A stretch of 64,000 bases of DNA from Candidatus Berkelbacteria bacterium (GCA_037127955.1 JBAXXI010000003.1:7771-71770); one strand, 5' to 3'. Shown: positions 42,286 to 61,248, numbered from the stretch's first letter. Numbers and translations are program-made. Notes: generated from the sequence alone by a model not told the origin.

Positions 42286-42311
42286 CCATATTTTAGATTA
42301 CAATTTAACGA

Positions 42312-43337: not shown

Positions 43338-43396
43338 GCCTCTCCTATTTTTTATTCTTCAGAATACTACGATTCCGCGATCGATTAAACGATCTT

Positions 43397-46065: not shown

Positions 46066-46074
46066 TTAAATTGA

Positions 46075-47136: not shown

Positions 47137-48241
47137 CTTTGACCTCTTTTAAAATATCTAATATCTTTTGAGCTGATACTTCCCAGGAGTACTTTTTGGC
47201 ATGCTCCAAAGCTTTTTGACCAAGGCTTTGCGCCAATTCTTTGTCCTCCAAGAGGCGCTGCAAGCCCCTAGCAATCGAGTTTATATCAAGTGGGTCAATT
47301 TGCACACCCCCATCTCCGACTGCTTCAGGTAGACTGGAAATATTACTGGTTAAAACTGGTACGCCATACTGCTGAGCCTCAATCACAGGTAGACCAAACC
47401 CTTCGTAAAGCGATGGATAGGCAAAAATTGCGGCCTGTCGGTAAAGTTCACCTAAATCCGCGTCAGAAACATAACCCAACCAGTTAACACCTTTAGTTTC
47501 CTTGATTTCCTCGAGTTCGAAAGCCGTATTCCAACCCTTAGCACCGACAATAACTAAAGGATATTTTTCTCTTAAATCCTCGCTCAATAACCGGTAAGCC
47601 TGAACCAAGCCTTTGAGGTTTTTTCTTGGTTCAAGTGTGCCCACAAACAAAATATAAGATTTTGATTTTAGATTTGAGGGCAATTTCCCTTTTTCGGGAA
47701 ATTGAGTTAGGCCTGGACCAACAATTTCGATTCTTTCAGGATTAATTTTAAGAAACTTTATGATATCATTTTTTGTTGATTCAGAAATCGCGATAATTTT
47801 TTTTGCCTTAGTACAAACTTTTTTTACTCTTTTATTGTGTCGAGCCGAAACCTCCTGACCACGTTGTTCAGGAAAAAGAAAAGTCGCCATATCATGAATT
47901 ATCACCACTTGAGGAGTTTTATAAGCTAAATGAACCTCAAAAAAACTTGGTGCCAACAAAATATCAGATTTATTATAAATATTCTCATAAAGAGCGTATG
48001 GCCAACCCCAAGCTAATTCCTTAAAATCACCCGGTAATTTCAACCTTTTAATCTTAACATTTGGCGCGATAAAATCTTTTAAATGTTCATTTTTTTCTTT
48101 ACTTTCACGAAAATGAGTTGAAAGCAAAACAAAATCATCGGTTTTACCGACTCTAATCAAATTTTGAGTAATTTCCCTGGTAAACCGACCAATACCGGCA
48201 TTTTCAATAATAGCTCTGGTGATATCGATACCAATTTTCAT
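47129..48241 (-). CDS. GT4-family glycosyltransferase
   Basis: YPSLYEGFGLPVIEAQQYGVPVLTS. Confidence 0.85.
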   Translation of the reverse strand: MKIGIDITRAIIENAGIGRFTREITQNLIRVGKTDDFVLLSTHFRESKEKNEHLKDFIAPNVKIKRLKLPGDFKELAWGWPYALYENIYNKSDILLAPSFFEVHLAYKTPQVVIIHDMATFLFPEQRGQEVSARHNKRVKKVCTKAKKIIAISESTKNDIIKFLKINPERIEIVGPGLTQFPEKGKLPSNLKSKSYILFVGTLEPRKNLKGLVQAYRLLSEDLREKYPLVIVGAKGWNTAFELEEIKETKGVNWLGYVSDADLGELYRQAAIFAYPSLYEGFGLPVIEAQQYGVPVLTSNISSLPEAVGDGGVQIDPLDINSIARGLQRLLEDKELAQSLGQKALEHAKKYSWEVSAQKILDILKEVKGE

Positions 48242-49317
48242 CTTTTTTTACCCACTTCTTCGTAAACCTTTACAGTTTCGCGAGCAGTTTTGGCCCAAGA
48301 AAACTTTTTGGCTTGCTCAAGCCCGGATAAACTCAGTTTTTCATGTAAATCTTTATCTGTTAAGACTTTAATAATATTTTCGGCCCAAACCTTTTCTTTG
48401 TCGATTGGCAAAAGAATACCAGCATCGCCAACCACTTCCGGAATTGACGAATTATCTGCCGCAATCACCGGAGTGCCACAACTTAAAGCTTCGAGTGGCG
48501 GAAAACCAAAACCCTCGTACAAACTTGGAAAACAAAAAAGATCAGCCGCGTTGTAAAGCCCCGGTAAATCTTCATCTGGCACATATCCTGGCAAAATGAC
48601 TTTATCCTCTAATTTGAGCTCTTTGATTAAATCAAACAAACTCTCGTAGTACCAACCTTTTTTCCCTGTTAAAACTAAATTATGCTCGATTTTGCCGGTT
48701 TTTAAAGCCTCGTGATAAGCCTTGACCAAAAACGGTAAATTTTTACGTGGCTCCAAGGTGCCCACGTCTAAAATAAATTTATCGCTGGTTTTATATTTAG
48801 CTTTTATTTCAGCAAGTTTTTGTGCATCATTAATCGGTTTAAATTCATCACCAACCGCCGAGTGAATGACTACGATTTTCTCTTCCGGAATCTTCAAAAG
48901 CGACATAATATCTCTTTTAGTATTTTCGCTAATGGCAATGATTTTGGCCGCTCGATTGTAGGTTAAAGGCATCCATTTAGAAAAATACAATCTTGAGCCA
49001 GACGGCATATTTTGCGGAAAATAGTGCGAAATTAAGTCGTGAATAGTTAAAATGATTTTTCCAGAATAAAAAAGCGGTGCTGAAAAACACGGTTGATGCA
49101 AAATATCAACATTAAGTTTTGAGGCTTTTGACGGGAAAGAACACTGATCCCAAACAAACCTTTGAGGTGTAGTAAAGTCTTTTTGGTCTTCTGGTGAGAT
49201 CAAAAAATATTCGTTAATCGAATCGACTTTTTTTAAATTTTCAACTAAATTCTTTACGTAGAAACCAAACCCAGACTTTTGTCCTAACGTTGTTTGCACG
49301 TCTATACCGATTTTCAT
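48238..49317 (-). CDS. GT4-family glycosyltransferase
   Basis: FPSLYEGFGFPPLEALSCGTPVIAA. Confidence 0.85.
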   Translation of the reverse strand: MKIGIDVQTTLGQKSGFGFYVKNLVENLKKVDSINEYFLISPEDQKDFTTPQRFVWDQCSFPSKASKLNVDILHQPCFSAPLFYSGKIILTIHDLISHYFPQNMPSGSRLYFSKWMPLTYNRAAKIIAISENTKRDIMSLLKIPEEKIVVIHSAVGDEFKPINDAQKLAEIKAKYKTSDKFILDVGTLEPRKNLPFLVKAYHEALKTGKIEHNLVLTGKKGWYYESLFDLIKELKLEDKVILPGYVPDEDLPGLYNAADLFCFPSLYEGFGFPPLEALSCGTPVIAADNSSIPEVVGDAGILLPIDKEKVWAENIIKVLTDKDLHEKLSLSGLEQAKKFSWAKTARETVKVYEEVGKKR

Positions 49318-49319
49318 AT

Positions 49320-50780
49320 CTATTCTCCTCGTTTAAACAAAACTAAAAACATATCTTTATTAATCGCGCGGCTAAACCATAAAATCAGTACATATATCAT
49401 ACAAGCTAAGGCGCACATCAAAACCCAATTGACCCCAGAACCAATAAAAATCAAGAATAAACCCATAACTAAACCAGCCAGCAAAGCTTTCCATAAAATC
49501 TGAAAATTCAACCTAGTCGACATATTGGCGTAAGCAATGCGCCAAGTAAAAATTAGAACAATCGCTTCAGTTAAAACCGTGACCAAAGCCGCGCCGATAT
49601 AGGAAAAATGCGGGATCAATAACCAGTTTAAACCTAAATTAAAAATGACAAAAATCAGGTTTGGCCAAATCAATTTAGCCTGTTTACCCAAAGCAATCAC
49701 TAAATAGTTGAAAATGATCGATAAAAAAGAAAAACAAACCGCAATAATTAAAATTTGTAAAGCCAAGACCGAGGTTGAAGCCAGACCGAAAACCGGTGGC
49801 ACAGTTTGAGCCACCACAAAGTCCTGACCAGCCACGATCCGAATAATCGGTTCAGCCGCATAAATAATTAAAATTGCGACCGGCAGTGCCAACATTAAAA
49901 GAAAATCAAAAGATTTCTGTAAAGTTGTCCTGAGTCGATCATCACCCGTATGAATATATCGGCTCATAATCGGAAAAATATTACCCATAAACATGCTTGG
50001 TAAAAGCAAAATCATTTCCAAAACCTTATAAGGTGGACCATAAATACCCACATCAGTCGAGGTTTTAAGGAGTGATAGCATCAAAGTATCGATACGAAAA
50101 TAGATCAAATTTAAAACCAAAACCACGGCCATTGGCCAGGCCTGAACAATCACCTGCTTCCAGTAAGCCCAATCAAAAGCTGGCCTAAATTTAACATAAG
50201 CCCGTCCCAACCAGGCACTTAATAACAAATTGACGATATTGCCAATCGCATAAGCCCAAAGAATCATAGTTAAACCATAGCCTTGTTTAATTAGGAAAAG
50301 TGTAAAAATCAAGATAATGATTCGACCCACTACATCAGTAATTGTGGCTTTATCCATTCGTAGTTTATTCTGAAAAACCCCGACATAGGTCGAATTGAGC
50401 GCCAAAAATAGCATGCTAAAAGCCGCGATACCAATACCGCTTTGGATCGAGGAATACTGTGGAATGAAAAAACTAATCAGGTAGCCTAGACCAAAAATCA
50501 CCACCCCGACCACGGTTCTTAAGGTTAGAATATTGGAAACAGCCTTATTAACATCAACATCTGGTTTAGCAATTTCACGTACCAAAATCCAAAAAAAGCC
50601 AAAATCCGCCAAAACCCCAAAAAAAGCTAAATAGGCAAAAATAGTAGTATATTCACCATAGCCGGCTACCCCCAAATAACGGGTTAAAGCCGCAACTAAA
50701 AACAGGGATATGACCGTGGTCGTTCCCTTGCCAATAATCTGAACAACTGTATTAAATGCTACTTTACGTGTTAATGACAT
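49320..50780 (-). CDS. Wzx-type polysaccharide flippase (MOP superfamily)
   Basis: About 14 TM helices. The ORF-track start at 50840 is a TTG codon. ATG at 50780 (MSLTRK) is preferred. Confidence 0.7.
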   Translation of the reverse strand: MSLTRKVAFNTVVQIIGKGTTTVISLFLVAALTRYLGVAGYGEYTTIFAYLAFFGVLADFGFFWILVREIAKPDVDVNKAVSNILTLRTVVGVVIFGLGYLISFFIPQYSSIQSGIGIAAFSMLFLALNSTYVGVFQNKLRMDKATITDVVGRIIILIFTLFLIKQGYGLTMILWAYAIGNIVNLLLSAWLGRAYVKFRPAFDWAYWKQVIVQAWPMAVVLVLNLIYFRIDTLMLSLLKTSTDVGIYGPPYKVLEMILLLPSMFMGNIFPIMSRYIHTGDDRLRTTLQKSFDFLLMLALPVAILIIYAAEPIIRIVAGQDFVVAQTVPPVFGLASTSVLALQILIIAVCFSFLSIIFNYLVIALGKQAKLIWPNLIFVIFNLGLNWLLIPHFSYIGAALVTVLTEAIVLIFTWRIAYANMSTRLNFQILWKALLAGLVMGLFLIFIGSGVNWVLMCALACMIYVLILWFSRAINKDMFLVLFKRGE

Positions 50781-51000
50781 TAGTTTAATTATATCAGTTT
50801 CAGTTAAATAAAAAAGACCAATATTATTATATAACAGCAATCTATTGGCTTATGACTTGAATTTATCATAAAAATCAGATATGATATTGATATCTTTGTA
50901 ATATCTGCAAGAATATCGCCCGCAAGCCTTTTGGCTTCGCCAAAGCTACGGTCGAATTGTAATATTTTATTCTTGCGACCAAAGGTCACACGAATAAAAT

Positions 51001-51076
51001 GCGCCCGTAGCTCAGTGGATAGAGCGTCTGCTTGCGGAGCAGAAGGCCACAGGTTCAAGTCCTGTCGGGCGCACCA
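51001..51076 (+). tRNA. tRNA-Arg (anticodon read as GCG)
   Basis: Cloverleaf with acceptor GCGCCCG/CGGGCGC, anticodon arm TCTGC-TTGCGGA-GCAGA, T-arm ACAGG-TTCAAGT-CCTGT and an encoded CCA. Confidence 0.75.
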
Positions 51077-52761
51077 TCAGTGATTAAGAGTAGTTTTTCA
51101 TAGTTTGGAGTGAGCGTAAAGTCGGTAACAGACCAGTCAAAAACAGGTTTGCCATCAGCTCTATCGCTCTTTTTTTGTGCTTGCAAAGTGAGGTTCAAAA
51201 AGTACTTTCTGATGATTTGGTCTTTGAGCTTGATATTGCGAGTGTTTATCAGTATTTCAACCATATCTTTGAAGAGTTCAAAGTATTTTTCATATGTCGG
51301 TATGGCGTTTTTTAAGTTCTCGATTTGAGCTTGAGTTTCCTTTATCTGGCTTTCAAAATACTCAATCTCTTTTTGGATTTGGTCTAAGTCGCCGCTATTA
51401 AAATGCTTCATCATTGTCGGGTCATTTCTTCTGACAATTTCTTTCGTTCTCTCATAAGTTTTAGTTCGTTCTGTTTTTTGTTGTCTTAGTGAGCGCAAAC
51501 GGCTATCTAATGAAGTTTCAACTTGCTTTGTAGTTTCTTCCTTTTCTTTAACCATCTGTTTATACATATCCATTGAAGTAAAATCGCATTTCTTAAAGTA
51601 ATCATAGATAAACTCAAGAGCGACTTTGGACCGAAATGATTTGCCGTGAACCGAGCAAGAGGGGTTATTACACCTAAACATATAGTAGTTTGTCTTTTTG
51701 GTTTTTGCTTTATTGTATTTTGTAGTAATACCAGAAATCATATCCGAACCACATTCGGCACATTTGATAATTCCCCTTAAAAGCATTTCTTTGTTTCTGG
51801 GTACGCCGATAGGTTTCTTGCTAATAAAAGATATGCCGTTGTAACTGTAATTATTGAGCTTGCAATACTCCTGAACGGTAATCATCGGGATAAAATCATA
51901 AATTTCTGTTAAATCAACAATCTCGGTGCCGTATTGCATTACGCCAGCATAAACAGGGTCTGAAAACATCACCGTTAAGGTATTATCAACAACTTTGTAA
52001 TGCATATTTCTTTCCCTATTAGCTACTGGAGCTCGGGTATATTTATTTTCATTTAGATACTTTTCTATTGCTTTGTAGTTCTGACCTTCCAGTCGCATTT
52101 CAAAAGCTCGCTTAATAAGCAACCAATTATCGCCATCTGGTCGCAATCTTTTGTTAATATCTTTGTAGTACCCTTGTTTGGGCGTATGAATTGATAAACC
52201 CGCTTGGGTACTTCTTCTTTGACCTCTAAGAACTTGTTCTCTCAAATGGTCTGAATACTGCTTTGAAAGCACAAAAGACATTCCAAGTAGCATTTTGCCC
52301 ATCGGCGAGTTTTCAAAAGTAAAAGTGGCAAATCTCAAATCTTTAATAATGTTTTCTTCTAAAAGATAGATTATTTCGCCAGCGTCTTTCATATTTCGTG
52401 CTAATCTGTCGGGGTGCCAGGCGAGAACGGCATTATATTTTCCCCTTTGAATATCTTCGAGCATTTTCTTAAACTTTGGTCTAATACCTGGCGCTTTTGC
52501 GCTTTCTTTTTCTCGAACTATATCGACAAGATTCAAATTATTTTTGGTTACTTGCATTTCAATACAGTCGGCAATTTGGTCTTCAAGCGACCGCTCTTGC
52601 TTCTCATCACCAGAGGTGGATTTTCTGACATATAAAACAAACTTTAGTTTAGTAACATCAATTACTGGTTCTGCGTCAAGCAAAGTTTGTTTTAACGCTT
52701 CCGCCAGTTCGCCAGTAGTCGTGAGAACGCTTTCAAGAGCTTGTTCTTTTTTGTTCATCAT
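51055..52761 (-). mobile_element. large serine recombinase (integrase) of an integrated element
   Basis: Catalytic region VLYVRKSTSGDEKQERSLEDQ...IYLLEENIIKDLRFATF. Zinc-ribbon and coiled-coil C-terminal region (CAECGS...CNNPSC). The stop codon lies inside the tRNA-Arg 3' end. The ATG overlaps the upstream stop in an ATGA arrangement. Confidence 0.85.
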
Positions 52762-53798
52762 AAAGTTTTTCCAATCGAAGAACCGTGAACTCTGAAATGA
52801 CATTTACCATTTTCTTCTTTTACTGTTTCGAGCTCTAAACTGCCATATTTCCCTGTAAATTTGTTGTTTGGATTATCACAAAGAGTTTTTATTACTTGTT
52901 CCGATTTTACAGTAAGGTATTGGTAAAAAGTGAAACAGTTTGTAATCTGCTCCAATAATTCAGGGATTGAAAGCACTTGATGAAGTTCAATCAGCATTAC
53001 ACCTTTATTCGAAACAGTATAATGGTTATGCGAGAATGCATTTCTAAGTTCATTATTGTAAAACGAGCTTATAATTTTGCCGACTTCGCTTTTAGCTTCT
53101 TTTGACCTGCTTAAAATCATATTTATTTTTCGCCAGTTGGTCATTTTATCTGAAAATAATGGTTTACAGACATCTGTAATATCTTTCGCTTTAATGTAAT
53201 CGGGATTTCCGTTCTCAATGATATTTTTTATTTTCCTGATTATTACCTGATAGTCAGGTGTTTTCTTTTCAAAAACATTCAAATCAAAACTTTCACCACA
53301 ACAGACATCAAGCAACCCATAAATAAAAATGTAAAATAAATAAAACTCAAGAATATGGCAATATAAAAAAATGAAAACTTTAATTAGCAAACCATCAGCT
53401 TGAAACAAATCGGGATTTCCAAGTAAAGAGAAGAAGTCGCCGAGTGTTTTATCCAGTTCTTTTCTTATGTCGTAATCATCACTTAATTGCATTAACCCAT
53501 TAAAATACAGATTGGCAATTACAAACTCTCTTTCATCTGTTTTTTGAGCAGATTCAAAAAGCTCATCAATCGTTTTTTGATACAGCGCTTTTGTTTCTTC
53601 TTTTGGAAATCTTAATTTTACAATCTTATCTTTTTCTTCGTTCATAATAACTGGACCAGTTTTAGACCACTTTTGGTTAAGCAGACCATCTGTCGGTAGA
53701 TTGAGGTTCATCAAAAGTAAAGCCGCTGGTAGTTCTTGCAAATACTGGTTGAACATCTTCTTTGTTGATAATATCCGAAAATCTGAATAATAAATCAA
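52758..53798 (-). CDS. HEPN-motif protein, Abi-like (possible Abi_2/AbiD-AbiF-type RNase)
   Basis: R-N-x3-H motif (ELRNAFSHNHY) matches the HEPN Rx4-6H signature. The size is similar to AbiD/AbiF. The start is uncertain: the ORF overlaps the HTH gene by 120 nt, and alternative ATGs lie at 53756, 53711 and 53645. Confidence 0.5.
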   Translation of the reverse strand: MIYYSDFRILSTKKMFNQYLQELPAALLLMNLNLPTDGLLNQKWSKTGPVIMNEEKDKIVKLRFPKEETKALYQKTIDELFESAQKTDEREFVIANLYFNGLMQLSDDYDIRKELDKTLGDFFSLLGNPDLFQADGLLIKVFIFLYCHILEFYLFYIFIYGLLDVCCGESFDLNVFEKKTPDYQVIIRKIKNIIENGNPDYIKAKDITDVCKPLFSDKMTNWRKINMILSRSKEAKSEVGKIISSFYNNELRNAFSHNHYTVSNKGVMLIELHQVLSIPELLEQITNCFTFYQYLTVKSEQVIKTLCDNPNNKFTGKYGSLELETVKEENGKCHFRVHGSSIGKTL

Positions 53799-54084
53799 TT
53801 AACTTACCAGTTGGAACATCGTTTAGTTTGCGGGTTGATAATTCACCCCTAATTAGCTCTAATTGCTCGCTATAGAGCTTTATGCGGTGTTCTCGACTTA
53901 TTTTATACTGTTCTCTTATTGATTCAAGCTCAATCTGTTTAAGGTTTGTTATCTCTTCCGCTAAATCTTTCGACCAATCAATTAGGGTGGTTTTACTGAC
54001 TTCTAATTCATCTGAAATTTTAGCAAAACTTTTACCTTTTGCCCTAAGTTCTACAAATTGTTGTTTCTTAGTTAAATCTTGCAT
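53677..54084 (-). CDS. helix-turn-helix DNA-binding protein
   Basis: HTH pattern ELRAKGKSFAKISDELEVSKTTLIDWSK, then a coiled-coil-like region. Confidence 0.6.
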   Translation of the reverse strand: MQDLTKKQQFVELRAKGKSFAKISDELEVSKTTLIDWSKDLAEEITNLKQIELESIREQYKISREHRIKLYSEQLELIRGELSTRKLNDVPTGKLIDLLFRFSDIINKEDVQPVFARTTSGFTFDEPQSTDRWSA

Positions 54085-54289
54085 TTGTTTGCTCCATAAT
54101 TACAATCTAATCATACCATAAAAACCGCTCTTCTAACAGTCGCAAAAGTAGTTTTTATTAGGTTCTAAATACCAGTATTTTTGAGACCAATTGAAATTAA
54201 AGTTCAGTTATGAGAAAATGGTTTCAGTTATAGTACATTATTACCCACCTAACCCTTAGGCAACCCCTAAGGTATGGTACCAATAAAAA

Positions 54290-54398
54290 TCACACGCAAA
54301 TAAAGGTGGTCTTCTGACCTCACCATTTGCGTGTGTCCGTATTCGAAAGAGTATGGGGTATCCCCGAAAGGGGGTGCCGAGGTTCGGGAGACCTTTTT
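54290..54398 (+). ncRNA. candidate structured RNA or terminator cluster (three hairpins plus T6)
   Basis: Hairpin CACACGCAAAT...ATTTGCGTGTG with an 11-bp stem, then GGGGTATCCCC and CCGAGGTTCGG hairpins, then a TTTTTT run. It lies 58 nt upstream of the 54457 gene. Confidence 0.3.
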
Positions 54399-54456
54399 TG
54401 TATTTAATAAATAACGAATTGAAACATTTTTTAATAAATTAAGGAAAGGAGCAAAA

Positions 54457-55200
54457 ATGCCCTTTATCTATCTCTTGGTTCTGGGAACATCTATCTGGGT
54501 TTTAGTTGATGGCTACAGGTACGAAATGAATAAAAACGAAAGTCCAATACTTTGGTTTATTGGTTGTCTATTACTTTGGATTATCGCTTTCCCTTGGTAC
54601 TTAGCTAAGAGAAATCATTATAAACTAAAAGATAATTCCGAAAAGGGCAAAGATTCAAAAGGTAGTTCCAAAATAGAATTAGGAAATCCGATAAAAACTC
54701 CTAATTTTCTTGCGATTGGCTGTGGTGGTCTAATACTGCTTATTATAATTGTTTCGATGATTAACAGTGGATTACAGGGAGCTAACAAAAAAGCTCAAGA
54801 TTTGAGTAAACAAAACTCTAACAACTCAACCAATACAAATCCGACACCCTCTAATAATAGCTCGTCTGCGCCACAAGTAAGTAATATCGCTGTTAATGGA
54901 GATGAAGCATATCTAAAGCTCCCAAATATAGATGATACTGGTTCTGCCATTCTATTAGCAACTGATAAAAAATATCTTGACGAGGTAACCAAAACTTTGA
55001 TAAACAAAGATTATATGGGAATACTTGAGTTAGCAGAACAAAACAAAGCATTTGCTGTACATAATGGTAGCAAAGTTCTCGTTATTGATGGCACTATGTT
55101 TGCTCGAAGAGTAAGAATTTTGCAAGGGACACAACCAGTTGATAGTGATAAGGTGGGCTTATCTGGCTGGGTTCCAATGGAGTGGGTAGTAAAAAAATAA
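54457..55200 (+). CDS. hypothetical membrane protein with Asn/Ser-rich linker and a C-terminal globular domain
   Basis: AAGGAAAGGAG SD. 2-3 TM helices. Confidence 0.55.
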   Translation: MPFIYLLVLGTSIWVLVDGYRYEMNKNESPILWFIGCLLLWIIAFPWYLAKRNHYKLKDNSEKGKDSKGSSKIELGNPIKTPNFLAIGCGGLILLIIIVSMINSGLQGANKKAQDLSKQNSNNSTNTNPTPSNNSSSAPQVSNIAVNGDEAYLKLPNIDDTGSAILLATDKKYLDEVTKTLINKDYMGILELAEQNKAFAVHNGSKVLVIDGTMFARRVRILQGTQPVDSDKVGLSGWVPMEWVVKK

Positions 55201-55224
55201 TTACCAAAAACAATAAAACAAAAG

Positions 55225-55249
55225 AGACGCTACAAAATGCGTCTTTTTT
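55225..55249. terminator. bidirectional terminator GACGC-TACAAAAT-GCGTC + T6
   Basis: Immediately after the 55200 stop. Confidence 0.7.
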
Positions 55250-55693
55250 GTTTCTAAAAGATTACATATCACAATACATCTACCTATAGTTCAAACCAAA
55301 ACTTGTTATGATTTAATGTCTTTGGTAACTTGGGGTTTTTCACCTAATTGTATGGTTTCACCATCATCAGAAATACCGACAAAACCACGAGCTGGAGAGT
55401 CATCTTTAGGTTCTTGTCTTGCTTGCTCTAATGAATTAGAAATGTCATTATTATTATCACTCATAGATTTAATATACCACGGAAAAGTCGGATTTAACAA
55501 GGTCTTTCTCGGTTAAAAGTGTTGTCAGTTCTCTAATAAAGGTTGAAATTATCTCCCAATTTGATAAGATGTATCTGGTAAGTTCAAATACACTATGTAC
55601 TTGAGCACCATTTTTTAAATTTTCTATGGAAGGGTCGCATAAGAACATTTTCTTCGGAAAATAACCTTGTCCAACCCATTCCTCACTTTGTTC

Positions 55694-55783
55694 GGAAGGG
55701 TCGCATAGTGGTCTAGTGCAGTGGTCTTGAAAACCGCCAGGCCTGCAAGGGTCTCGTGGGTCCGAATCCCACCCCTTCCGCCA
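55694..55783 (+). tRNA. tRNA-Ser (anticodon TGA), type II with long variable arm
   Basis: Acceptor GGAAGGG/CCCTTCC, anticodon loop CTTGAAA, a variable-arm hairpin, T-arm GTGGG-TCCGAAT-CCCAC and an encoded CCA. 90 nt. Confidence 0.8.
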
Positions 55784-55807
55784 TCTTTTTTAATAATATG
55801 AATCGAT

Positions 55808-56056
55808 ATGAATAATTGGTCAGTTTATATTTTGCAATGCTCAGATAACACCTATTATACTGGTATTACGACCGATATTGAAAAGCGATTAATCGCCCAT
55901 CAAACCGGCAAAGGCGCTAAATATACTGCTGGTCGATTACCTGTTAAAATCGTGTATTTCAAAGATAATCTAACCGAAAGTCAGGCTCGCAAAGAAGAAT
56001 TTAGAATCAAAAGTTTATCAAGATCTGATAAGATAAAACTGATATTTGATAAATAA
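55808..56056 (+). CDS. GIY-YIG nuclease-domain protein (YhbQ/UPF0213-like)
   Basis: WSVYILQCSDNTYYTGITTDIEKRLIAHQTG matches the GIY-YIG core (Y..Y.G, R, H). Confidence 0.8.
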   Translation: MNNWSVYILQCSDNTYYTGITTDIEKRLIAHQTGKGAKYTAGRLPVKIVYFKDNLTESQARKEEFRIKSLSRSDKIKLIFDK

Positions 56057-56109
56057 AAATGGTTTCCAAACCATTGATAGACAACTTAACAATTTGATAT
56101 AATTAATAT

Positions 56110-56724
56110 ATGAAATTCTATTCGAATGATATAGTCAATTTGGCTAGAGAAAAAAGAATTAAAGGTAATTCTATTAGAAAAATTTCCAAAGAATTACAAA
56201 TTTCAGATACTACTATTGGCAGATGGGTAAAAGATATAAAATCAGATTCTTTATCTTATAACAAAAATAGATTAAAAAATGAAGATGAGAAGCAGAAATA
56301 TAATCATCTTTTTAAAAACTTAAAAATTACAGCAAAAAATGCAAAATTATTTTGTAGTTTACTATATTGGTGCGAAGGATCGAAATACCCTTCTAGTAAC
56401 TGTGTCACTTTTGTAAATAGCGATTTCAAGTTAGTGAAAACATTCTTTCAATTATTGAAACAAGTCTTCGAAATAGATAACAATAAAGTTAGAATACACC
56501 TGCAAATACATGCAACTCACAACTTTGAAGAAGTAAGAAAATTCTGGAGTAAGTTACTTGCTATACCAGAAGAACAGTTTTACAAACCGACTATCACCAA
56601 TCCTGCCCAAAAAATGAAAAGATTAAATTACAAGGGCACTTGTACACTAAAATACTTTGACTCAAAAATATTATTACAGATTACTGGCATATTCGAAGAA
56701 TTTTCCAATAAAAATTTATCATAA
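56110..56724 (+). CDS. HTH-domain protein with possible LAGLIDADG-like endonuclease region
   Basis: N-terminal HTH (GNSIRKISKELQISDTTIGRWVKD). LLYWCEGSKYP weakly resembles a LAGLIDADG motif. Confidence 0.45.
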   Translation: MKFYSNDIVNLAREKRIKGNSIRKISKELQISDTTIGRWVKDIKSDSLSYNKNRLKNEDEKQKYNHLFKNLKITAKNAKLFCSLLYWCEGSKYPSSNCVTFVNSDFKLVKTFFQLLKQVFEIDNNKVRIHLQIHATHNFEEVRKFWSKLLAIPEEQFYKPTITNPAQKMKRLNYKGTCTLKYFDSKILLQITGIFEEFSNKNLS

Positions 56725-56738
56725 CTAAAAACGCATTC

Positions 56739-56827
56739 GGAGAGATCGCATAGTTGGTCTAGTGCGCCTCACTGCTAACGAGGTATACCGCAAGGTATCC
56801 AGGGTTCGAATCCCTGTCTCTCCGCCA
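56739..56827 (+). tRNA. tRNA-Ser (anticodon GCT), type II
   Basis: Acceptor GGAGAGA/TCTCTCC, anticodon loop CTGCTAA, variable-arm hairpin TATACC-GCAA-GGTAT, T-arm CAGGG-TTCGAAT-CCCTG and CCA. 89 nt. Confidence 0.8.
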
Positions 56828-56830
56828 ATT

Positions 56831-56854
56831 AAAAAACGCCTTAGGCGTTTTTTG
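56831..56854 (+). terminator. terminator AAAAAACGCC-TTA-GGCGTTTTTTG
   Basis: Hairpin with a U-tract directly after the tRNA. Confidence 0.7.
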
Positions 56855-56886
56855 TTTAATTCAAGATTAACAAGAAGCTCCCTCTC

Positions 56887-56915
56887 TTGACAATCAGACA
56901 AAACTGGACTAATAT
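56887..56915 (+). promoter_or_regulatory. sigma-70-like promoter TTGACA-17-TAATAT
   Basis: It leaves a leader of about 220 nt before the 57141 gene. Confidence 0.4.
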
Positions 56916-57140
56916 CAAGTGTAATTTGAAACTTAAAAATCTAGCTCGATTTGAGAGGCCTATCTTGACCATAATTTACAACTTTTATGGTTAAAACAGG
57001 ACTCTTAAAGAGAGTACCAAGACGGTATTGTTAGCTACCGCACAAAAAAACTAACCGGATCGATACGGTTTTGGAACGGCTTGCTTGAAACAGAGTAAGA
57101 AGTTGCCAAAAAAGTCACTTGGTTCGTCAGGAGAAATCCA

Positions 57141-57953
57141 ATGTTAAAACTTCCATTTTGGAAACAGCTGTGGCTCTGGATGTTGACTCCAGTCATACCA
57201 ACAATACTGTTGGTTTACCTTCGACCACTTCCAATCGAGAAATGTCTGTTTATCGGACTCTTATTTTTTATTGGAGTCTTGTATATCTGGTTCAATGTAA
57301 CTTGTGTAGATCGATACAACATCGAAATTGCCAAGAATCGAAAAAAAGAACTCGAGGAAAACCTTGAGGTCTTTGAATCATTAACTGGTCAAAAAATCAA
57401 CATTCCAGTCCTAAAAATTAATTATATTGAACTATATAATTGGAAACAATCATATCATGAATTCCTTGAAAATATCGCATCGCATACCACCGGTCTCTTC
57501 TCGCTTATAAAGCATATCAAAGAACATGACGTAAAAAATTGGATTTTAGAGATACAGTTTGAAACTAATAATTTTAAGGATATCCATAGCGATGGACGCT
57601 TAACAATAACGAATTATTATATTTGTTATGCTGACGGTCAAATAAAAAATTGGAGACTTGAAAACAATCAATATTTGGTTGATATGGATGGAAAGAAAAT
57701 TCTACTTGAGATGAACGAAAATTACAAATTATATATTACTAAAATTCTCTATATCATTAGACATTATCGCAGTGTTAAAGAGGTGGCACTCGATTATGCT
57801 TCAAAATACGTTGTTCCTATCATTGAAAAATCAAAGCATGCCTGCGCTTCAGATGACTTGAAAAGCGCAAGAATACTAATGACCGATCCAATCAAAATTA
57901 TTGTCAATACAGACCCAGCCTATCCGAAGTTATTTAACATTATTAAATATTAA
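57141..57953 (+). CDS. hypothetical membrane-anchored protein (270 aa), AT-rich
   Basis: GGAG SD. Two N-terminal TM helices. No recognisable domain. Confidence 0.5.
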   Translation: MLKLPFWKQLWLWMLTPVIPTILLVYLRPLPIEKCLFIGLLFFIGVLYIWFNVTCVDRYNIEIAKNRKKELEENLEVFESLTGQKINIPVLKINYIELYNWKQSYHEFLENIASHTTGLFSLIKHIKEHDVKNWILEIQFETNNFKDIHSDGRLTITNYYICYADGQIKNWRLENNQYLVDMDGKKILLEMNENYKLYITKILYIIRHYRSVKEVALDYASKYVVPIIEKSKHACASDDLKSARILMTDPIKIIVNTDPAYPKLFNIIKY

Positions 57954-57969
57954 ATAAACTTCAACCTCC

Positions 57970-57997
57970 AGCCGGACTTTTCAAGTCCGGCTTTTTT
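57970..57997 (+). terminator. terminator AGCCGGACTT-TTCA-AGTCCGGCT + T6
   Basis: Perfect 10-bp stem. Confidence 0.75.
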
Positions 57998-58031
57998 ATT
58001 ATAAAAAGTCTGTCAAACAGGTCTCTACACC

Positions 58032-58060
58032 TTGACTTTTGCTTAAATTTACAGTATAAT
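58032..58060 (+). promoter_or_regulatory. sigma-70 promoter TTGACT-17-TATAAT
   Basis: Upstream of the GT2 gene. Confidence 0.5.
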
Positions 58061-58118
58061 GTTATAATTATCACAAATAAGATATTGATATTTTAAACCA
58101 GAAAGAAACTGTAAATAT

Positions 58119-58808
58119 ATGAAATTAGCTATTTTAATTCCGGCTTACAATGAAGAAACCACTCTTGGTCATGTTATCGAAACTTTGCCAAAAACTATTC
58201 CGGGTATTTCAGATATAAAAGTTATTGTTGTTAATGATGGTTCAGCCGATAAAACTAAAGAAATTGCCCAAGCTTCCGGTGCAACTGTCATATCTCACTG
58301 GTTTAACCGCGGTCTAGGCGGTGCTTTAGGTACCGGTTTTGAGTATATTCGTCGACATGATTTTGATCTCCTGATTACCTTCGACGCCGACGGTCAACAC
58401 AATCCAAACGATATCGCTCCTGTTATCAAGCCAATTATTGACGGCAAAGCCGATGTTTCAATTGGTTCTCGTTTTATTGGCAACCTTGGCTCTATGCCTT
58501 GGTATCGCCGGATTGGTATTTTTGGTTTAAATGTAATCACTTATATGTTATTTTGGACTTGGACAACTGATTCACAATCAGGTATGCGCGCCTTTGGCCG
58601 TAAAGCTATTGAAAAAATCGAAATTCAAACCAATAAAATGGAAGTCTCTTCAGAGTTTTTTTATGAAATTCAAGCTAAGAACCTAAAATTAACTGAAGTA
58701 CCAATTCAGTCAATTTACACTGACTACTCGATTGCCAAAGGTCAAAAAAACATCAATGCTTTCAATATTTTGGCTAAATTAATTTACAGAAGGTTTTTTT
58801 CTAAATAA
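58119..58808 (+). CDS. GT2-family glycosyltransferase (DPM1/GtrB-like polyprenyl-phosphate sugar transferase)
   Basis: LAILIPAYNEETTL...VIVVNDGSADKT...DADGQH. Confidence 0.85.
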   Translation: MKLAILIPAYNEETTLGHVIETLPKTIPGISDIKVIVVNDGSADKTKEIAQASGATVISHWFNRGLGGALGTGFEYIRRHDFDLLITFDADGQHNPNDIAPVIKPIIDGKADVSIGSRFIGNLGSMPWYRRIGIFGLNVITYMLFWTWTTDSQSGMRAFGRKAIEKIEIQTNKMEVSSEFFYEIQAKNLKLTEVPIQSIYTDYSIAKGQKNINAFNILAKLIYRRFFSK

Positions 58809-58817
58809 TTATTAGAA

Positions 58818-59219
58818 TTGCGAGGATTCATGGACTTATTCGACCGTTTTCTAACCTTAGTCACCCCAATTCGGGTCATTTTAAGCTTGTTCGCAGTTTT
58901 TGCCTGGACCAGAGTCGTTTTAAGGTTCAAGGATAAAGTTGCAAACGCCAAAGAATTAGGTTTTTGGAGCCTAGTTTGGCTTGGTTTTATTATTATCATC
59001 TTTATACCTTATAAAACCACTTTTGTCGCTCATCTTTTAGGTATGGAGCGCGGTTTTGACGCTATGGCTTTAATCGCTATTGTTGCCCTATTTTACGCCG
59101 TTTACAGACTCTATATTAAAATGAACGAAGCAGAACGAGAAATTACTAAACTTGTACGCCAGGTTGCTTTAAAATTAGATGTGATTAACGGCGAAAAAGA
59201 CAAAACTGATCTTAAATAA
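58818..59219 (+). CDS. small membrane protein (DUF2304-like), GT2-associated
   Basis: Three TM helices plus a C-terminal coiled coil. Its position directly after a GT2 gene is a known association for this family. Confidence 0.55.
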   Translation: MRGFMDLFDRFLTLVTPIRVILSLFAVFAWTRVVLRFKDKVANAKELGFWSLVWLGFIIIIFIPYKTTFVAHLLGMERGFDAMALIAIVALFYAVYRLYIKMNEAEREITKLVRQVALKLDVINGEKDKTDLK

Positions 59220-59220
59220 A

Positions 59221-60432
59221 ATGAAAATTTTACTTATTACTCAATGGTACGAACCAGTTAAAGGCGCGGCAGCCAAAAGAACCGGCAAAATGGCCCGGTT
59301 TTTAACTGATGCCGGCCACAAAGTCACGGTTTTAACCAGTTTCCCCTCTTATCCGACCGGGATCGTACCAGCTGAATTTAAAGGTAAACTCTGGGATAAA
59401 CAAAAAAAAGATGGTATCGAGATAATCCGTATCTGGGAATTACCGGCTTCGACTCAAGATAGTACTATCAAGCGGCTCTTGAATATGTTAACTTTTGCCA
59501 AATCCGCCTTCTGGGGCGCACTTTTGTTAAAACCATATGACGCAGTCTTGGTTAGTTCTCCCTCGTTTTTAAGTGGGATTGCCGGTTTGGTCAACACCAG
59601 GACCAAAAAAAGTAAATTTTACTTTGACATCCGCGATTTATGGCCAGATTCAGCTATTGAACTCGGGGTTTTGCCAAAAACTGGCTTTGCCACCGAACAA
59701 ATGAAAAAACTGGAAAAAAAATTTTATAATCGCGCCACCAAAATTTTTACCGCAACTCCAGGGATTAAAGATCATTTATTAACCGAGAAAATTCCTTCTG
59801 ACAAGATTGAAGTTCTTTTAAATAGCGTTGATACCGATAAATTTAAACCGGTTGAAGCTAATTTTGACAAATACGGATTTAATCGTGGCGACTTTATCTG
59901 TGGTTATATCGGTAACCATAGCCGAGTTTATGACCTTGAAACAGTCATCAAGACCGCCGAAATTACTAAAAAGAATGAAAAAATTAAATATTTACTGGTT
60001 GGTGAAGGTGAAACCAAACAAAAACTAAAAGATTTAACTCAAAAATTAGACCTGAAAAACGTCTTTTTTATGGATCAAATGAGTTTAGACGAATTAGCTC
60101 CAATTACTGGTTTATTTAGTTTAGGTTTAGCCCCGATTTCCAATATCGGTGTTTCTCAAGAATCATTTCCATCTAAGACTTGTGAATATTTTGCCAGCGG
60201 TAAGCCCGTAGCTGCCTCTCTCGGCGGCGATATGGCCAAAATTATAACAGAATACGAGGTTGGTTTTCTTTACAAACCAGGCGATGCTAATGCCTTAGCC
60301 GAAATCATCTTAAATTTAAGCAAAAATCCCGAAAAAGCCCAAAAAATGGGTCAAAATGCCAGAAAACTCGCTTTAGACATGTTTTCAGATAAAATCTTTG
60401 CTGAAAAACTGATCTCTAGCCTTAAGGACTAA
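59221..60432 (+). CDS. GT4-family glycosyltransferase
   Basis: GT-B fold. 403 aa. TCEYFASGKPVAASLGGDMAKII. Confidence 0.8.
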   Translation: MKILLITQWYEPVKGAAAKRTGKMARFLTDAGHKVTVLTSFPSYPTGIVPAEFKGKLWDKQKKDGIEIIRIWELPASTQDSTIKRLLNMLTFAKSAFWGALLLKPYDAVLVSSPSFLSGIAGLVNTRTKKSKFYFDIRDLWPDSAIELGVLPKTGFATEQMKKLEKKFYNRATKIFTATPGIKDHLLTEKIPSDKIEVLLNSVDTDKFKPVEANFDKYGFNRGDFICGYIGNHSRVYDLETVIKTAEITKKNEKIKYLLVGEGETKQKLKDLTQKLDLKNVFFMDQMSLDELAPITGLFSLGLAPISNIGVSQESFPSKTCEYFASGKPVAASLGGDMAKIITEYEVGFLYKPGDANALAEIILNLSKNPEKAQKMGQNARKLALDMFSDKIFAEKLISSLKD

Positions 60433-60435
60433 AAT

Positions 60436-61233
60436 TTAATCTAAATTTGGCTTTGGATACATCGATACAACCTGATCAACAGTTTTAACTTGAATCTGAC
60501 CCTGATCTCTTTTCTGAGCAATATAAGACATAATCTCTTGCATATTTTTTTCTTTAATTTCAAACCTGGTCGTAGGATCCTCATTCACAGAATGAAAATA
60601 GATAATCAACCAACCTTTTTGATTAATTGCTTGATTAATTCTTTCCTTGACCACACTGATAGTACTCGATTGGCCGACCTCATAAGAAGAAAGGCCGTAA
60701 TTATTTAATTTATCCAGATGATTAATACCAGGATTGCCTCGAATCTGGTTCTTTCGGTTAGATTGATAATACTCTTCAATCAAGGCCAAAATATTACTGG
60801 TATATTGGCCATAAGGTGCGGCAAAAGATGTAACATTGTAACCATGTTGAGCAAAAATATCCTTCGCTCCAACTAATTCAGCGATCGCTTGATTGCGCGT
60901 TAGAGTATTAAGATGCGGGTGATTAACCGTATGACTAGCAATCTCCCACCCATTTTTATTCAGGTCATTTACATCATCCCAGGTCACAAATTCGTTTTTA
61001 CCAATAGACCCAGCGGTCAAATAAAAAGTGGCTGGAATATTGTATTTCTTCATAATCGGGTAAGCGCTATTATAAACAGTTTTAGAGCCATCATCAAAAG
61101 TAATTGTCACTATACCGGTCCATTTACTCGGATCGTTTCTAGGCACTTGATTTTTAACCATATAAAAACCAGCCGAACCTGAAAAAATGACAATTATAAT
61201 TAGTAAAATCGTATTTTTATTTAAAAATGACAT
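60436..61233 (-). CDS. polysaccharide deacetylase (CE4/NodB family), membrane-anchored
   Basis: NodB motifs VTITFDDG and HTVNHPHL. Confidence 0.85.
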   Translation of the reverse strand: MSFLNKNTILLIIIVIFSGSAGFYMVKNQVPRNDPSKWTGIVTITFDDGSKTVYNSAYPIMKKYNIPATFYLTAGSIGKNEFVTWDDVNDLNKNGWEIASHTVNHPHLNTLTRNQAIAELVGAKDIFAQHGYNVTSFAAPYGQYTSNILALIEEYYQSNRKNQIRGNPGINHLDKLNNYGLSSYEVGQSSTISVVKERINQAINQKGWLIIYFHSVNEDPTTRFEIKEKNMQEIMSYIAQKRDQGQIQVKTVDQVVSMYPKPNLD

Positions 61234-61248
61234 ATAGTTTTATTTAAA

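Follow-up and report, generated by a model that had tools for sequence, protein, structure and literature searches.

Serine integrases usually target protein-coding or intergenic sites. An integrase gene that is split by integration is known from the SSV1-type fusellovirus of Sulfolobus, which integrates into a tRNA gene; attP lies inside the open reading frame (ORF) of int, only the episome holds the gene intact, and this archaeal-virus enzyme, a tyrosine recombinase, loses much of its length to the split. Islands of the Islander/TIGER type at tRNA and tmRNA genes also carry tyrosine integrases (Williams 2002, cited in PMC12884075). Among the Prochlorococcus tycheposons and related tRNA-gene elements, the describing paper counts 27 of 937 whose enzyme is a large serine recombinase (LSR) in place of a tyrosine recombinase (bioRxiv 10.1101/2020.12.28.424599).

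The locus described here lies in Candidatus Berkelbacteria bacterium, in a stretch of 64,000 nucleotides (the window), at the extreme 3′ end of a tRNA-Arg gene. Its LSR has the Resolvase/Recombinase/zinc-ribbon architecture of phage and ICE serine integrases (A118/LI, phiC31, Bxb1, TP901-1, SPbeta SprA, SCCmec Ccr), and the crossover is likewise short and without a long direct repeat. Unlike those systems, the window family targets tRNA or tmRNA genes at their extreme 3′ end, appears to place attP in the LSR ORF, so that the protein differs between integrated and excised states, and comprises very small elements (2.6–11 kb) without phage or conjugation genes. As in Islander/TIGER islands, the integrase gene lies beside the 3′ end of a tRNA that is kept functional, the cargo is variable and often defence-like, and one tRNA can be a hot spot for different elements (here in L087 and L088). 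However, the enzyme class is different, the identity block is 2–7 nt rather than tens of nt, and the far tRNA-like sequence is probably not a gene fragment that was displaced but an attP arm offset by 5 nt. With SSV1-type integrases the window LSR would share an attP within the integrase ORF and a gene partitioned at a tRNA, but it is a bacterial serine recombinase that loses only a 46-aa C-terminal tail and keeps its catalytic and DNA-binding domains. Tycheposons are likewise small cargo-bearing elements at tRNA genes in streamlined genomes, but mostly with tyrosine recombinases and often with replication genes; the passages of that paper available to us make no mention of a split recombinase gene or a CCA-end crossover (bioRxiv 10.1101/2020.12.28.424599). 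Among searchable papers we found no description of a split-LSR layout at a tRNA 3′ end.

We consider it likely that the feature is a 4.5-kb integrative element, inserted by its own LSR at the CA of the CCA end of tRNA-Arg, with attP inside the LSR gene.

Anatomy of the element

The integrated element occupies 51077–55610 (4,534 bp) and contains the LSR, a HEPN-like gene, an HTH gene, a LOOT RNA, a membrane protein and a 64-aa ORF. The features of the element and its flanks are, in window coordinates:

41155–50840, minus strand: left flank with four GT4, two Wzy and one Wzx gene (Pfam)
51001–51076, plus strand: tRNA-Arg(GCG), target gene (ARAGORN; Rfam 74.9 bits)
about 51040–51074: 3′ part of tRNA-Arg, B arm of the attachment site
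51075–51076: candidate attL crossover, CA of the encoded CCA end
51055–52761, minus strand: LSR, integrated form, 568 aa as called on identical contigs (Pfam)
52758–53711, minus strand: HEPN-like cargo gene; likely true start M23 at 53645, giving 295 aa
53677–54084, minus strand: 135-aa HTH protein, conserved LSR partner in the subfamily
54165–54175: internal junction of integration module and variable cargo; L090 is similar up to ~54170, the LOOT flank of L091 from ~54172 on
54246–54378, plus strand: LOOT RNA (RF03000; Rfam 66.6 bits, gathering score 46.4)
54457–55200, plus strand: variable cargo, a membrane-anchored protein of 247 aa whose linker is rich in Thr/Ser/Asn
55306–55500, minus strand: 64-aa acidic ORF adjoining the far end
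55469–55609, minus strand: detached LSR 3′ end, 46 codons (GAQVHSVFELTRYILSNWEIISTFIRELTTLLTEKDLVKSDFSVVY) and stop
55577–55608, plus strand: P arm of the attachment site (GGTAAGTTCAAATACACTATGTACTTGAGCAC), mimic of the tRNA-Arg 3′ end
55609–55610: candidate attR crossover, CA; similarity to L117 and L092 stops exactly here
55611–55641, plus strand: host flank (B′ side), a 17-nt AT-rich spacer, then 14 nt that repeat the tRNA-Ser(tga) 5′ end (55628–55641)
55694–55783, plus strand: tRNA-Ser(tga) (ARAGORN; Rfam)
55808–56056: GIY-YIG gene (Pfam, E = 1.9e-14)
56739–56827, plus strand: tRNA-Ser(gct) (ARAGORN; Rfam)
from 58119: right flank, GT2, then DUF2304, GT4 and deacetylase genes

All the features named in the preliminary description are present in the sequence at the coordinates it gave, the HEPN assignment being tentative and the HTH match weak. 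Its central claim, an integrated element at the tRNA-Arg 3′ end driven by a large serine recombinase, is borne out by the LSR domains and by empty sites in relatives.

The recombinase gene and its detached tail

The LSR matches the Pfam domains Resolvase (3.6e-21), Recombinase (2.1e-6) and Zn_ribbon_recom (4.4e-7), and its profile matches the TP901-1 catalytic domain. Identity to phage LSRs is only 24–28%, and there are more than 1400 homologues. The R-K-S and Cys residues are invariant, and the ORF is intact, including the catalytic Ser and the zinc-ribbon Cys residues. As had been proposed, the integrase gene reads into the attachment site and its stop overlaps the tRNA 3′ end: the TGA (51055–51057) lies within the T-loop, the antisense overlap is 22 nt, and the last six codons plus stop (DG-APDRT and stop) are antisense tRNA-Arg. 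A homologue adjoining ABC-transporter genes (P0001, 96% identical) differs from the window LSR solely in the tRNA-encoded tail.

At the far end, the tail at 55469–55609 falls in the LSR frame only once attL and attR are joined into attP. Joining the ends in silico extends the LSR ORF from 568 to 608 aa in the window, and yields 606 aa in L117. The 46-codon tail is kept in the window, L117, L092 and L091 with a pN/pS of 0.29–0.45, which includes codons outside the att arm; judged from these alignments, it is under purifying selection, and it may have a function. We scanned the far ends of 52 related loci with neutral criteria (an offset mimic followed, in the frame of the LSR, by 30 or more open codons). 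The +5 mimic was followed by such a frame in 23 of 52 loci, other offsets in 1–8 loci, and 14 of 27 such tails end in Tyr, mostly preceded by two hydrophobic residues.

Attachment sites and probable crossover

The two ends of the element share an identical stretch of just 7 nt, GCACCAT; a long direct repeat as in tyrosine integrases is absent, as expected for a serine recombinase. The far-junction mimic spans 55577–55610 and has the CA of CCA in common with the tRNA end, and the similarity of L117 and L092 terminates right after ...TTGAGCACCA. CA is the one dinucleotide that the two junctions share in each of the window, L117/L090, L091 and the L092 relic. It is favoured as the probable crossover dinucleotide, but AT (51076–77) is also compatible with three of the four junction pairs. 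The reconstructed attP reads ...GTACTTGAGCAC CA TCAGTGATTAAGAG..., with an inverted symmetry whose centre falls one base right of CA; the symmetry of the P′ and B′ half-sites is weak.

The T-loop motif GTTCAA lies 16 nt from CA in the tRNA (51053–51058) and 21 nt from CA in the P arm, that is, 5 nt farther out, and the same geometry is found in L091 and L092. The inner bases of the mimic covary with the target tRNA (GCAC, GTAC, TCCAC). In phage and ICE serine integrases the attP half-site is like that of attB, except that its outer motif stands 5 bp farther from the centre, a shift described for the ZD motif of attB relative to attP (PMC3783163). By sequence, the 5-nt offset of the window mimic matches this attP/attB geometry (PMC3783163).

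The host flank at 55611–55641 resembles the empty site of L116 (CCA, a 19-nt spacer, tRNA-Ser(tga)). The 14-nt tRNA-Ser fragment beside attR has no place in the proposed model.

Cargo and internal junction

The HEPN-like gene lies in a 906-nt cassette (52753–53658) that is missing from the closest relative; in L090/L117, which lack it, the HTH gene adjoins the LSR directly. An RNxFxH motif is invariant in 16 homologues, the PADLOC Csx1/Csm6 HEPN region matches weakly (E = 2.6e-4), and the AF2 model has a pLDDT of 86. Neither Pfam nor a Foldseek search of the PDB gave a match, and we assign the HEPN identity tentatively. One homologue (P0242) resides in a different LSR island, at a tmRNA gene.

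The 135-aa HTH protein, whose HTH_23 match is weak (E = 9e-4, below the Pfam cut-off), is always encoded immediately upstream of the LSR (93% identity in L090/L117, 58% in L001/L091) and may be a regulator or directionality factor. The junction at 54165–54175 was considered as an element end and rejected, the true attR being at 55609–55610. The LOOT RNA also occurs within the related L091 element (49.7 bits). The 247-aa membrane protein had no family match in profile searches; different proteins of similar architecture take its position in L091 (249 aa) and L117 (274 aa). The 64-aa ORF shares 78% amino acid identity with L117, 60% with L092 and 58% with L091.

Relatives and the family-wide pattern

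The element of L117/L090 has an LSR with 96% amino acid identity and lacks the HEPN cassette, a 274-aa gene replacing the LOOT RNA and the 247-aa gene. That of L091/L001 (LSR 67% identical) occupies a tRNA-Arg(gcg) in another neighbourhood and carries HNH, a 243-aa gene, Schlafen/AlbA_2 genes and LOOT. Across the 72 homologue genome loci with a complete LSR 3′ end, the LSR reads into a tRNA in 55 (46 stop inside the antisense tRNA, nine cross the whole tRNA). Since tRNA genes make up only 0.93% of the DNA in these loci, the overlap is far beyond chance. The targets comprise 23 anticodon species, and one family member, fetched separately from the 72, lies at a tmRNA gene. In L087 and L088, two unrelated LSR elements sit in one tRNA-Ser(gct) and diverge 1 nt beyond CCA.

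As had been suggested, we compared the locus with relatives lacking the insertion, and found empty sites in L087–L089 and L116; all are from other species (Wzx 72–75% amino acid identity), none from the window's own population. In L087–L089, which represent one related species, the order is Wzx, RR, tRNA-Arg(gcg), tRNA-Ser(tga), tRNA-Ser(gct) ... GT2, with a 76-nt tRNA-Arg that has no insert and is 100% identical to the window's in the unoccupied L087.

Alternative explanations

The preliminary description had the element run to 57997 and split the polysaccharide locus. A single ~7-kb element of this kind (51001–57997), with both tRNA-Ser genes, GIY-YIG and the 204-aa and 270-aa genes as cargo in a once contiguous locus, would fit the small genes, RNAs, AT-rich DNA and mildly deviant k-mers of 51–58 kb, a 270-aa ORF without homologue elsewhere, and breaks in two assemblies near 58054–58074. 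Yet the tRNA cluster stands beside Wzx, and in L087 between Wzx and GT2, in related species whose tRNA-Arg is unoccupied; in L116 (adjoining Wzx 72% identical to the window's) tRNA-Arg directly precedes tRNA-Ser(tga), with 19 nt between them; and in L117 tRNA-Ser(tga) and GIY-YIG are preserved in synteny outside the island. A direct repeat of the tRNA-Arg end was sought at 57.9–58.1 kb and none was found, the far junction with its mimic and detached tail lying at 55469–55610, and the first 17 bases of L085, which are unmatched, resemble sequencing adapter. We regard this reading as hardly credible. Of the cargo proposed, the HEPN-like, HTH and membrane protein genes stand; the two tRNA-Ser genes and GIY-YIG belong to the host and are conserved in relatives, and the 204-aa and 270-aa ORFs were not shown to be cargo. 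A GC plot did reveal the AT-rich segment (0.244 at 56000–56499) but not a clearly foreign composition: the element has 34.7% GC where the window averages 37.4%, and k-mers deviate modestly, over the whole of 51–58 kb. Conversely, the mobile unit could be only a 3.1-kb module (51077–54174: LSR, HEPN-like and HTH genes), with LOOT, the 247-aa gene and the 64-aa ORF as host or older-island remains and 55577–55610 as an old scar. The changes in similarity near 54170 and 54172, an ACCA at 54171–54174, and a Saccharibacteria segment of just ~2 kb with 91–93% identity between differing flanks speak for it. It is unlikely, given that the tail is in frame with the window LSR and co-conserved in four elements, and that the 64-aa ORF/P-arm block (55281–55611) has 89% nucleotide identity to L117, near the 92% of the LSR and far above the 71% of Wzx, and accompanies the LSR into other neighbourhoods (L091, L092). 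From 54175 onward there is no recombinase remnant, and a short repeat near 54144 is no better than chance.

Crossover within the tRNA (T-loop or anticodon) in the manner of tyrosine integrases, with the element supplying a new 3′ end and the far copy being the displaced, decaying host end, seems very improbable. The far end does resemble a tRNA 3′ end from T-loop through CCA, and in L038 the tRNA end recurs as a 22-nt repeat at a distance of 5.3 kb. However, the same 5-nt insertion is found in the far copy of four elements aimed at two tRNA species, +5 is alone among all offsets enriched in the 52 loci, and between the window and L090 the T-stem bases flanking the T-loop on either side change together. 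In different hosts the far copy is kept along with the element, and the peptide that it encodes is conserved, a pattern that random decay is not expected to yield; the tRNA-Ser is identical after two unrelated elements; and the enzyme is a serine, not a tyrosine, recombinase. A different question is whether the window copy is an immobile relic, its truncated 568-aa LSR inactive or domesticated and the element fixed in the chromosome. This concerns present activity only, is compatible with the anatomy proposed here, and strikes us as possible though rather doubtful. Because all five samples of the window population have an occupied site, at 100% identity, the copy may be fixed or inactive. We saw no excised circle or attP junction (provirus contigs show no circular forms), IMG/VR does not contain the exact attP pattern, the detached tail is not present at the end of any of the 120 best LSR protein homologues, and the family has decayed relics (L092/L093). 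Against this, the LSR ORF with its catalytic Ser and zinc-ribbon Cys residues is intact, as are both att arms and the tail under apparent purifying selection, and the cargo cassette was acquired after the split from the L117 element; the window copy may still be active today.

Proposed integration mechanism

In the model that we favour, the LSR would insert its own element at the terminal CA of the CCA end encoded by tRNA-Arg(GCG), leaving the tRNA intact. The host half-site would be the acceptor/T-arm DNA of the tRNA, and the far-end half-site of the element would copy this sequence with the outer T-loop motif shifted 5 bp outward. Because attP would sit inside the LSR gene, integration would split that gene and detach its last 46 codons, now at 55469–55609. 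The integrated gene would terminate with six codons and a stop from the antisense tRNA, so that the protein would measure 568 aa when the element is integrated and 608 aa when it is excised. Between the conserved ends, the HTH partner gene and the small conserved ORF would accompany exchangeable cargo (here the HEPN-like cassette, the LOOT RNA and a surface protein). Over 20 different tRNA genes, and tmRNA, would be targets of the same design, which appears to be common across Patescibacteria.

The recombinase and its overlap with tRNA-Arg

The open reading frame at 51055–52761 (minus strand) encodes an N-terminal resolvase catalytic domain (PF00239, E = 3.6e-21), a recombinase domain (PF07508, E = 2.1e-6) and then a zinc ribbon (PF13408, E = 4.4e-7), the latter two passing curated cut-offs. 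This combination of Resolvase, Recombinase and Zn_ribbon_recom domains therefore marks a large serine recombinase (LSR), and together with the geometry of the attachment sites it identifies the protein, at the level of sequence, as a member of that family. Across 20 homologues, R45-K46-S47, which includes the nucleophilic serine, is invariant, as are the zinc-ribbon cysteines C333, C336 and C368, with C363 almost so. TP901-1 integrase and a conjugative-transposon recombinase give profile matches through their catalytic domains, and identity to phage LSRs is 24–28%. A coiled-coil motif within the zinc-ribbon domain is a hallmark of LSRs, and residues ~420–500 are charged and heptad-like as judged by eye. 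No recombinase remnants were found elsewhere in the window, and a promoter scan gave a number of sites not above chance expectation.

The integrated LSR has 568 residues according to the gene call on identical public contigs. Its last codons (GAT GGT GCG CCC GAC AGG ACT TGA) come from the tRNA-Arg 3′ end read on the opposite strand, where TTCAA of the T-loop supplies the stop codon. The preliminary description had the recombinase reading into tRNA-Arg, which these codons and the LSR domains bear out, and the polysaccharide genes on either side are as it described them. ARAGORN places three tRNA genes around the element, all on the plus strand, and Rfam agrees with each.

Features around the element
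41155–50840, left flank: GT4 genes, two Wzy genes and Wzx
51001–51076, plus strand, tRNA-Arg(gcg)
55694–55783, plus strand, tRNA-Ser(tga)
56739–56827, plus strand, tRNA-Ser(gct)
58119, right flank: GT2, then DUF2304, GT4 and deacetylase genes

The two ends of the element

To locate the far end, we compared the window with related elements. L117 and L090, contigs of relatives, carry the same element at tRNA-Arg beside a host Wzx that is 71% identical (nucleotides) to that of the window; identity is 92% for the LSR gene (96% for the protein), 88% for the HTH region and 89% for the block 55281–55611. In L117, the sequence past this last block continues with NUDIX, tRNA-Ser(tga) and GIY-YIG genes. 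Similarity between L117 and the window ends exactly past ...TTGAGCACCA(T); the decayed relic L092 stops at the identical point and the related element L091 at the equivalent one.

The far end of the window element (55577–55610) reads GGTAAGTTCAAATACACTATGTACTTGAGCAC followed by CA, a mimic of the tRNA-Arg 3′ end, CACAGGTTCAAGTCCTGTCGGGCGCAC followed by CA, in which the inner bases match. The mimic comprises 32 nt and has a 5-nt insertion: in the window, L091 and L092 alike, 21 nt separate the T-loop motif GTTCAA from CA at the far end, as opposed to 16 nt in the tRNA. In L091 the junction pair is GGGTAC-CA (mimic) and ...GGCGTAC-CA (tRNA), and in the L092 relic the mimic GTCCAC-CA matches a tRNA-Ala end, both with the same 16/21 spacing. 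As the inner bases follow each element's own tRNA, the mimic covaries with the target. In serine integrases, the zinc-ribbon-domain motif lies 5 bp nearer the centre in attB than in attP (PMC3783163); the P/B half-site pair fits this rule clearly, while the P′/B′ pair is weak.

The preliminary description had suggested a search for a direct repeat of the tRNA-Arg 3′ end. At up to three mismatches, the last 25 nt have no copy within the window besides the tRNA itself, an ungapped search for tRNA-end repeats across 47 loci was mostly negative, and only GCACCAT is identical at both ends; both searches missed the far-end mimic at 55577–55610 because of its 5-nt insertion.

No dinucleotide other than CA occurs at both junctions in all four elements, and in L087 and L088, which carry two unrelated LSR elements in one tRNA-Ser(gct), the sequences part 1 nt past CCA. 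We therefore place the crossover at CA of CCA as the candidate dinucleotide, giving an element of 51077–55610 (4,534 bp), a putative attP junction of GTACTTGAGCACCATCAGTGATTAAGAG and a predicted restored attB of CGGGCGCACCATTTTTTAAATTTTCTATGG. An element at tRNA-Arg is real, but smaller than the ~7 kb (51001–57997) first proposed. Compositional profiling, also suggested there, did pick up GC and k-mer signals, but these are weak and non-localising.

Other candidate ends were rejected. A 21-nt repeat (51086–51106 and 54144–54164) scored 13 against 12.0 ± 1.65 for shuffled controls, and is not above them. An end at 54170–54174, proposed from L090 and L091, becomes an internal module junction in the light of L116, L117 and the tail reading frame. 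The public contig L085 appears to join the window at 58074, and its first 17 bases (ATGTGTATAAGAGACAG) have no match to the window; these presumably derive from a sequencing adapter (Nextera-type), which makes the apparent junction artefactual. For the L087 locus, intergenic DNA is too diverged to locate the far end by alignment to the window, and a motif search placed it at L087 position 328.

The recombinase gene, as reconstructed, is partitioned

Joining 51077 to 55608 through the shared CA leaves the LSR frame open for 46 more codons, ending ...LLLITDGAQVHSVFELTRYILSNWEIISTFIRELTTLLTEKDLVKSDFSVVY and a stop codon, so that the reconstructed gene encodes 608 residues where the integrated gene encodes 568. 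By this reconstruction attP lies inside the LSR reading frame, and integration would partition the gene. The same end-joining in L117 gives 606 residues, and both L091 and the L092 relic have tails of exactly 46 codons with a conserved protein sequence. Between the window and L117 the tail has pS 0.21 and pN 0.06, and between the window and L092 pS 0.52 and pN 0.24. pN is also low relative to pS in tail codons 12–46, outside the att arm. Some of the tail substitutions are silent, CTG to TTA for example, and no start codon is conserved for the tail itself.

We also looked for tails by neutral criteria, requiring that 4 nt match the tRNA end, that 7 or more of 12 positions match the T-loop region at a set offset, and that the LSR frame stay open for 30 codons or more. 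With an offset of +5, 23 of 52 loci pass, compared with 1–8 loci at offsets of −5, −3, 0, 3, 7 and 10. The consensus of the tails is G-x6-(L/F)-E-L...ΦΦY; 14 of the 27 found end in tyrosine, typically preceded by two hydrophobic residues, and the island sizes that they imply are 2.6–11 kb.

The flanking tRNA-Ser genes belong to the host

The window population is represented by five samples (ERZ27299977, ERZ27300010, ERZ27300137, JGI 3300021349 and SRR7053532), whose contigs are 100% identical to window 48119–64000 and all carry the insert; the window Wzx protein is likewise 100% identical to a protein of a ‘Candidatus Berkelbacteria’ MAG. Comparison with syntenic genomes, as the preliminary description had advised, yielded empty sites in other species. 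In three related loci (L087–L089; Wzx 75% identical in amino acids), the order is H+-PPase...Wzy, Wzy...Wzx, response regulator, tRNA-Arg(gcg), LAGLIDADG-like ORF, tRNA-Ser(tga), tRNA-Ser(gct). Their tRNA-Arg equals that of the window over all 76 nt and holds no insert, with divergence directly after CCAT, and in L087 GT2 lies on the far side of the tRNA cluster. A further locus, L116 (Wzx 72%), has tRNA-Arg(gcg), 19 nt and then tRNA-Ser(tga), a clean empty site.

Since these loci have the tRNA cluster beside Wzx in the absence of the element, the tRNA-Ser genes belong to the host. In L117, synteny beyond the element includes tRNA-Ser(tga) and GIY-YIG, and L087 keeps tRNA-Ser(gct); counting the tRNA-Ser genes and the GIY-YIG nuclease as cargo was therefore mistaken. 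The flank past attR, with a 17-nt AT-rich spacer and then 14 nt of tRNA-Ser 5′ end, resembles in layout the L116 empty site (19-nt spacer, then tRNA-Ser). These 14 nt (GGAAGGGTCGCATA) are an exact copy, at 55628–55641, of the tRNA-Ser(tga) 5′ end (55694–55707), 66 nt upstream of the real gene.

Two further reading frames are outside the island. A 204-residue protein (56110–56724, plus strand) with an N-terminal HTH is encoded where AT content peaks in the region (GC 0.244), with GIY-YIG on one side and tRNA-Ser(gct) on the other; its only matches are weak ones of the transposase HTH type, and it is not similar to the LAGLIDADG-like ORF that L087 has in the corresponding position. In a search of 5.8 billion proteins, the 270-residue ORF (57141–57953, plus strand) matched nothing but itself. 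Its position immediately downstream of tRNA-Ser(gct), a site occupied by LSR islands in L087 and L088, leads us to speculate that it may be what is left of an earlier island.

Cargo

The element has conserved ends, one made up of the HTH and LSR genes and the other of a 64-residue ORF, the tail and the P arm, while the middle is variable.

Middle cargo of three related elements
Window: HEPN-like cassette, LOOT RNA, 247-residue membrane protein
L117: 274-residue protein only
L091: Schlafen/AlbA_2, 243-residue gene, HNH endonuclease, LOOT RNA, 249-residue membrane protein

The HEPN-like gene forms a 906-nt cassette (52753–53658) between the HTH and LSR genes, with an ATGA stop/start overlap, and is missing in L090 and L117. 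HEPN domains are recognised by an Rx4-6H motif in a four-helix bundle. The protein (317/295 residues) belongs to a small family (61 representatives among 1.8 billion proteins), and RNxFxH is invariant in 16 homologues. It matches the HEPN region of Csx1/Csm6 in PADLOC (E = 2.6e-4), single family members give faint HEPN_Cthe2314 and Csx1_HEPN matches, and the AF2 model is confident (pLDDT 86); Foldseek found no match to it in the PDB. We tentatively assign it as a HEPN-domain protein.

The orphan sRNA motif LOOT (RF03000) lies at 54246–54378 (plus strand), covering model positions 1–121 of 121 at 66.6 bits (gathering threshold 46.4). A second copy sits in the related L091 element (L091 2997–3125), and from these two elements LOOT may be a mobile-element cargo RNA.

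A family of tRNA-targeting recombinases in Patescibacteria

The LSR has more than 1400 homologues, nearly all in Patescibacteria. We surveyed 80 genome loci, in which tRNA genes make up 0.93% of the DNA; the associated tRNAs cover 23 anticodon species.

Position of the LSR 3′ end among the 72 loci in which it is complete
Stop within an antisense tRNA: 46
ORF through the whole tRNA: 9
tRNA start within 200 nt of the LSR: 4
No tRNA at the LSR end: 13

The loci read through completely, with no stop within the antisense tRNA, are L008, L039, L049, L061, L065, L067, L072, L073 and L076, and involve mostly tRNA-Ser. The homologous protein P0001, 96% identical to the window LSR, adjoins ABC-transporter genes, and its sole difference is the tRNA-encoded tail (NGAPRGI vs DGAPDRT).

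Several other islands were encountered. Found separately from the survey, a same-family LSR in L115 (5368–11596) shares 50 nt with the 3′ end of a tmRNA gene, in an island carrying a HEPN-like homologue and FtsK_gamma, Terminase_2-like HTH and HNH_2 proteins. The two unrelated LSR islands in the single tRNA-Ser(gct) occur in one related species (L087 218–8190 and L088 1–8190): one has Replic_Relax, reverse-transcriptase fragments and a bAvd-like gene, and looks like a diversity-generating retroelement, and the other has a Toprim primase and DUF5659. The decayed island (L092 1300–3521, L093 1–3660) keeps only the last 137 LSR codons, the 64-residue ORF and the tail, and has ATTGGTGG repeats on its flanks; beside it, 65 nt of the tRNA-Ala(tgc) 3′ flank are present a second time.

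Discussion

The site, both junctions, the attP-like geometry and the split, conserved reading frame can be read directly from the sequences compared here. In the mechanism we propose, the LSR would recombine the tRNA end with attP, which consists of P arm, CA and a P′ arm lying in the 3′ coding region of the LSR gene itself. Integration would leave the tRNA intact and replace its trailer, and excision would restore the 608-residue gene. The 135-residue HTH protein or the 64-residue ORF may regulate or direct the reaction, and both are candidates only. No excised form was seen: of 120 homologous proteins none bore the tail, IMG/VR lacked the exact attP junction pattern, and the relatives retrieved from IMG/VR were trimmed proviruses with no terminal repeats.

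A further reading, which we consider rather unlikely, is that integration toggles the LSR itself, with the 608-residue excised and 568-residue integrated isoforms recombining different sites. The enzyme made from the excised circle would have the conserved ~46-residue C-terminal tail ending hydrophobic-hydrophobic-Tyr, which in the integrated enzyme would be swapped for a few antisense-tRNA residues. The full-length form might then act on attP × attB and the shortened form on attL × attR, or the reverse, giving directionality control to an LSR in place of a separate factor, or alongside one. On this reading the tRNA acceptor/T-arm DNA would also be a retargetable half-site, given that members of the family now occupy more than 20 tRNA species and tmRNA.

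In lifestyle the element resembles tRNA islands, which as a rule rely on tyrosine integrases: its integrase adjoins the tRNA 3′ end, and relatives (L116 and L087–L089) have empty sites. In archaeal viruses of the SSV1 type, the integrase gene is split by integration and the enzyme is a tyrosine recombinase. By reconstruction the LSR gene is split in a similar way, but by a serine recombinase in a Berkelbacteria genome; the likeness is one of working, and the element is neither related to the SSV1 type nor a member of it.

Serine integrases are major genome-engineering tools, and control of their direction is an active structural question. In the literature searched, the only LSRs reported at tRNA genes belong to a minority of tycheposon-like elements (bioRxiv 10.1101/2020.12.28.424599), and we found no account of this Patescibacteria group of LSRs or of a serine integrase that is split in nature. 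What is of interest is the design common to many relatives, a split serine integrase directed at tRNA ends. A family with differing C-termini in the integrated and excised states makes the directionality idea directly testable (608 versus 568 residues). The targets (tRNA 3′ ends) and matching attP arms are readable from sequence, giving dozens of predicted enzyme/site pairs, and for the hard-to-manipulate Patescibacteria such enzymes could open a way to genetic tools. It is now possible to delimit small tRNA-gene islands in these reduced genomes, among them islands with defence-like genes and the orphan LOOT RNA.
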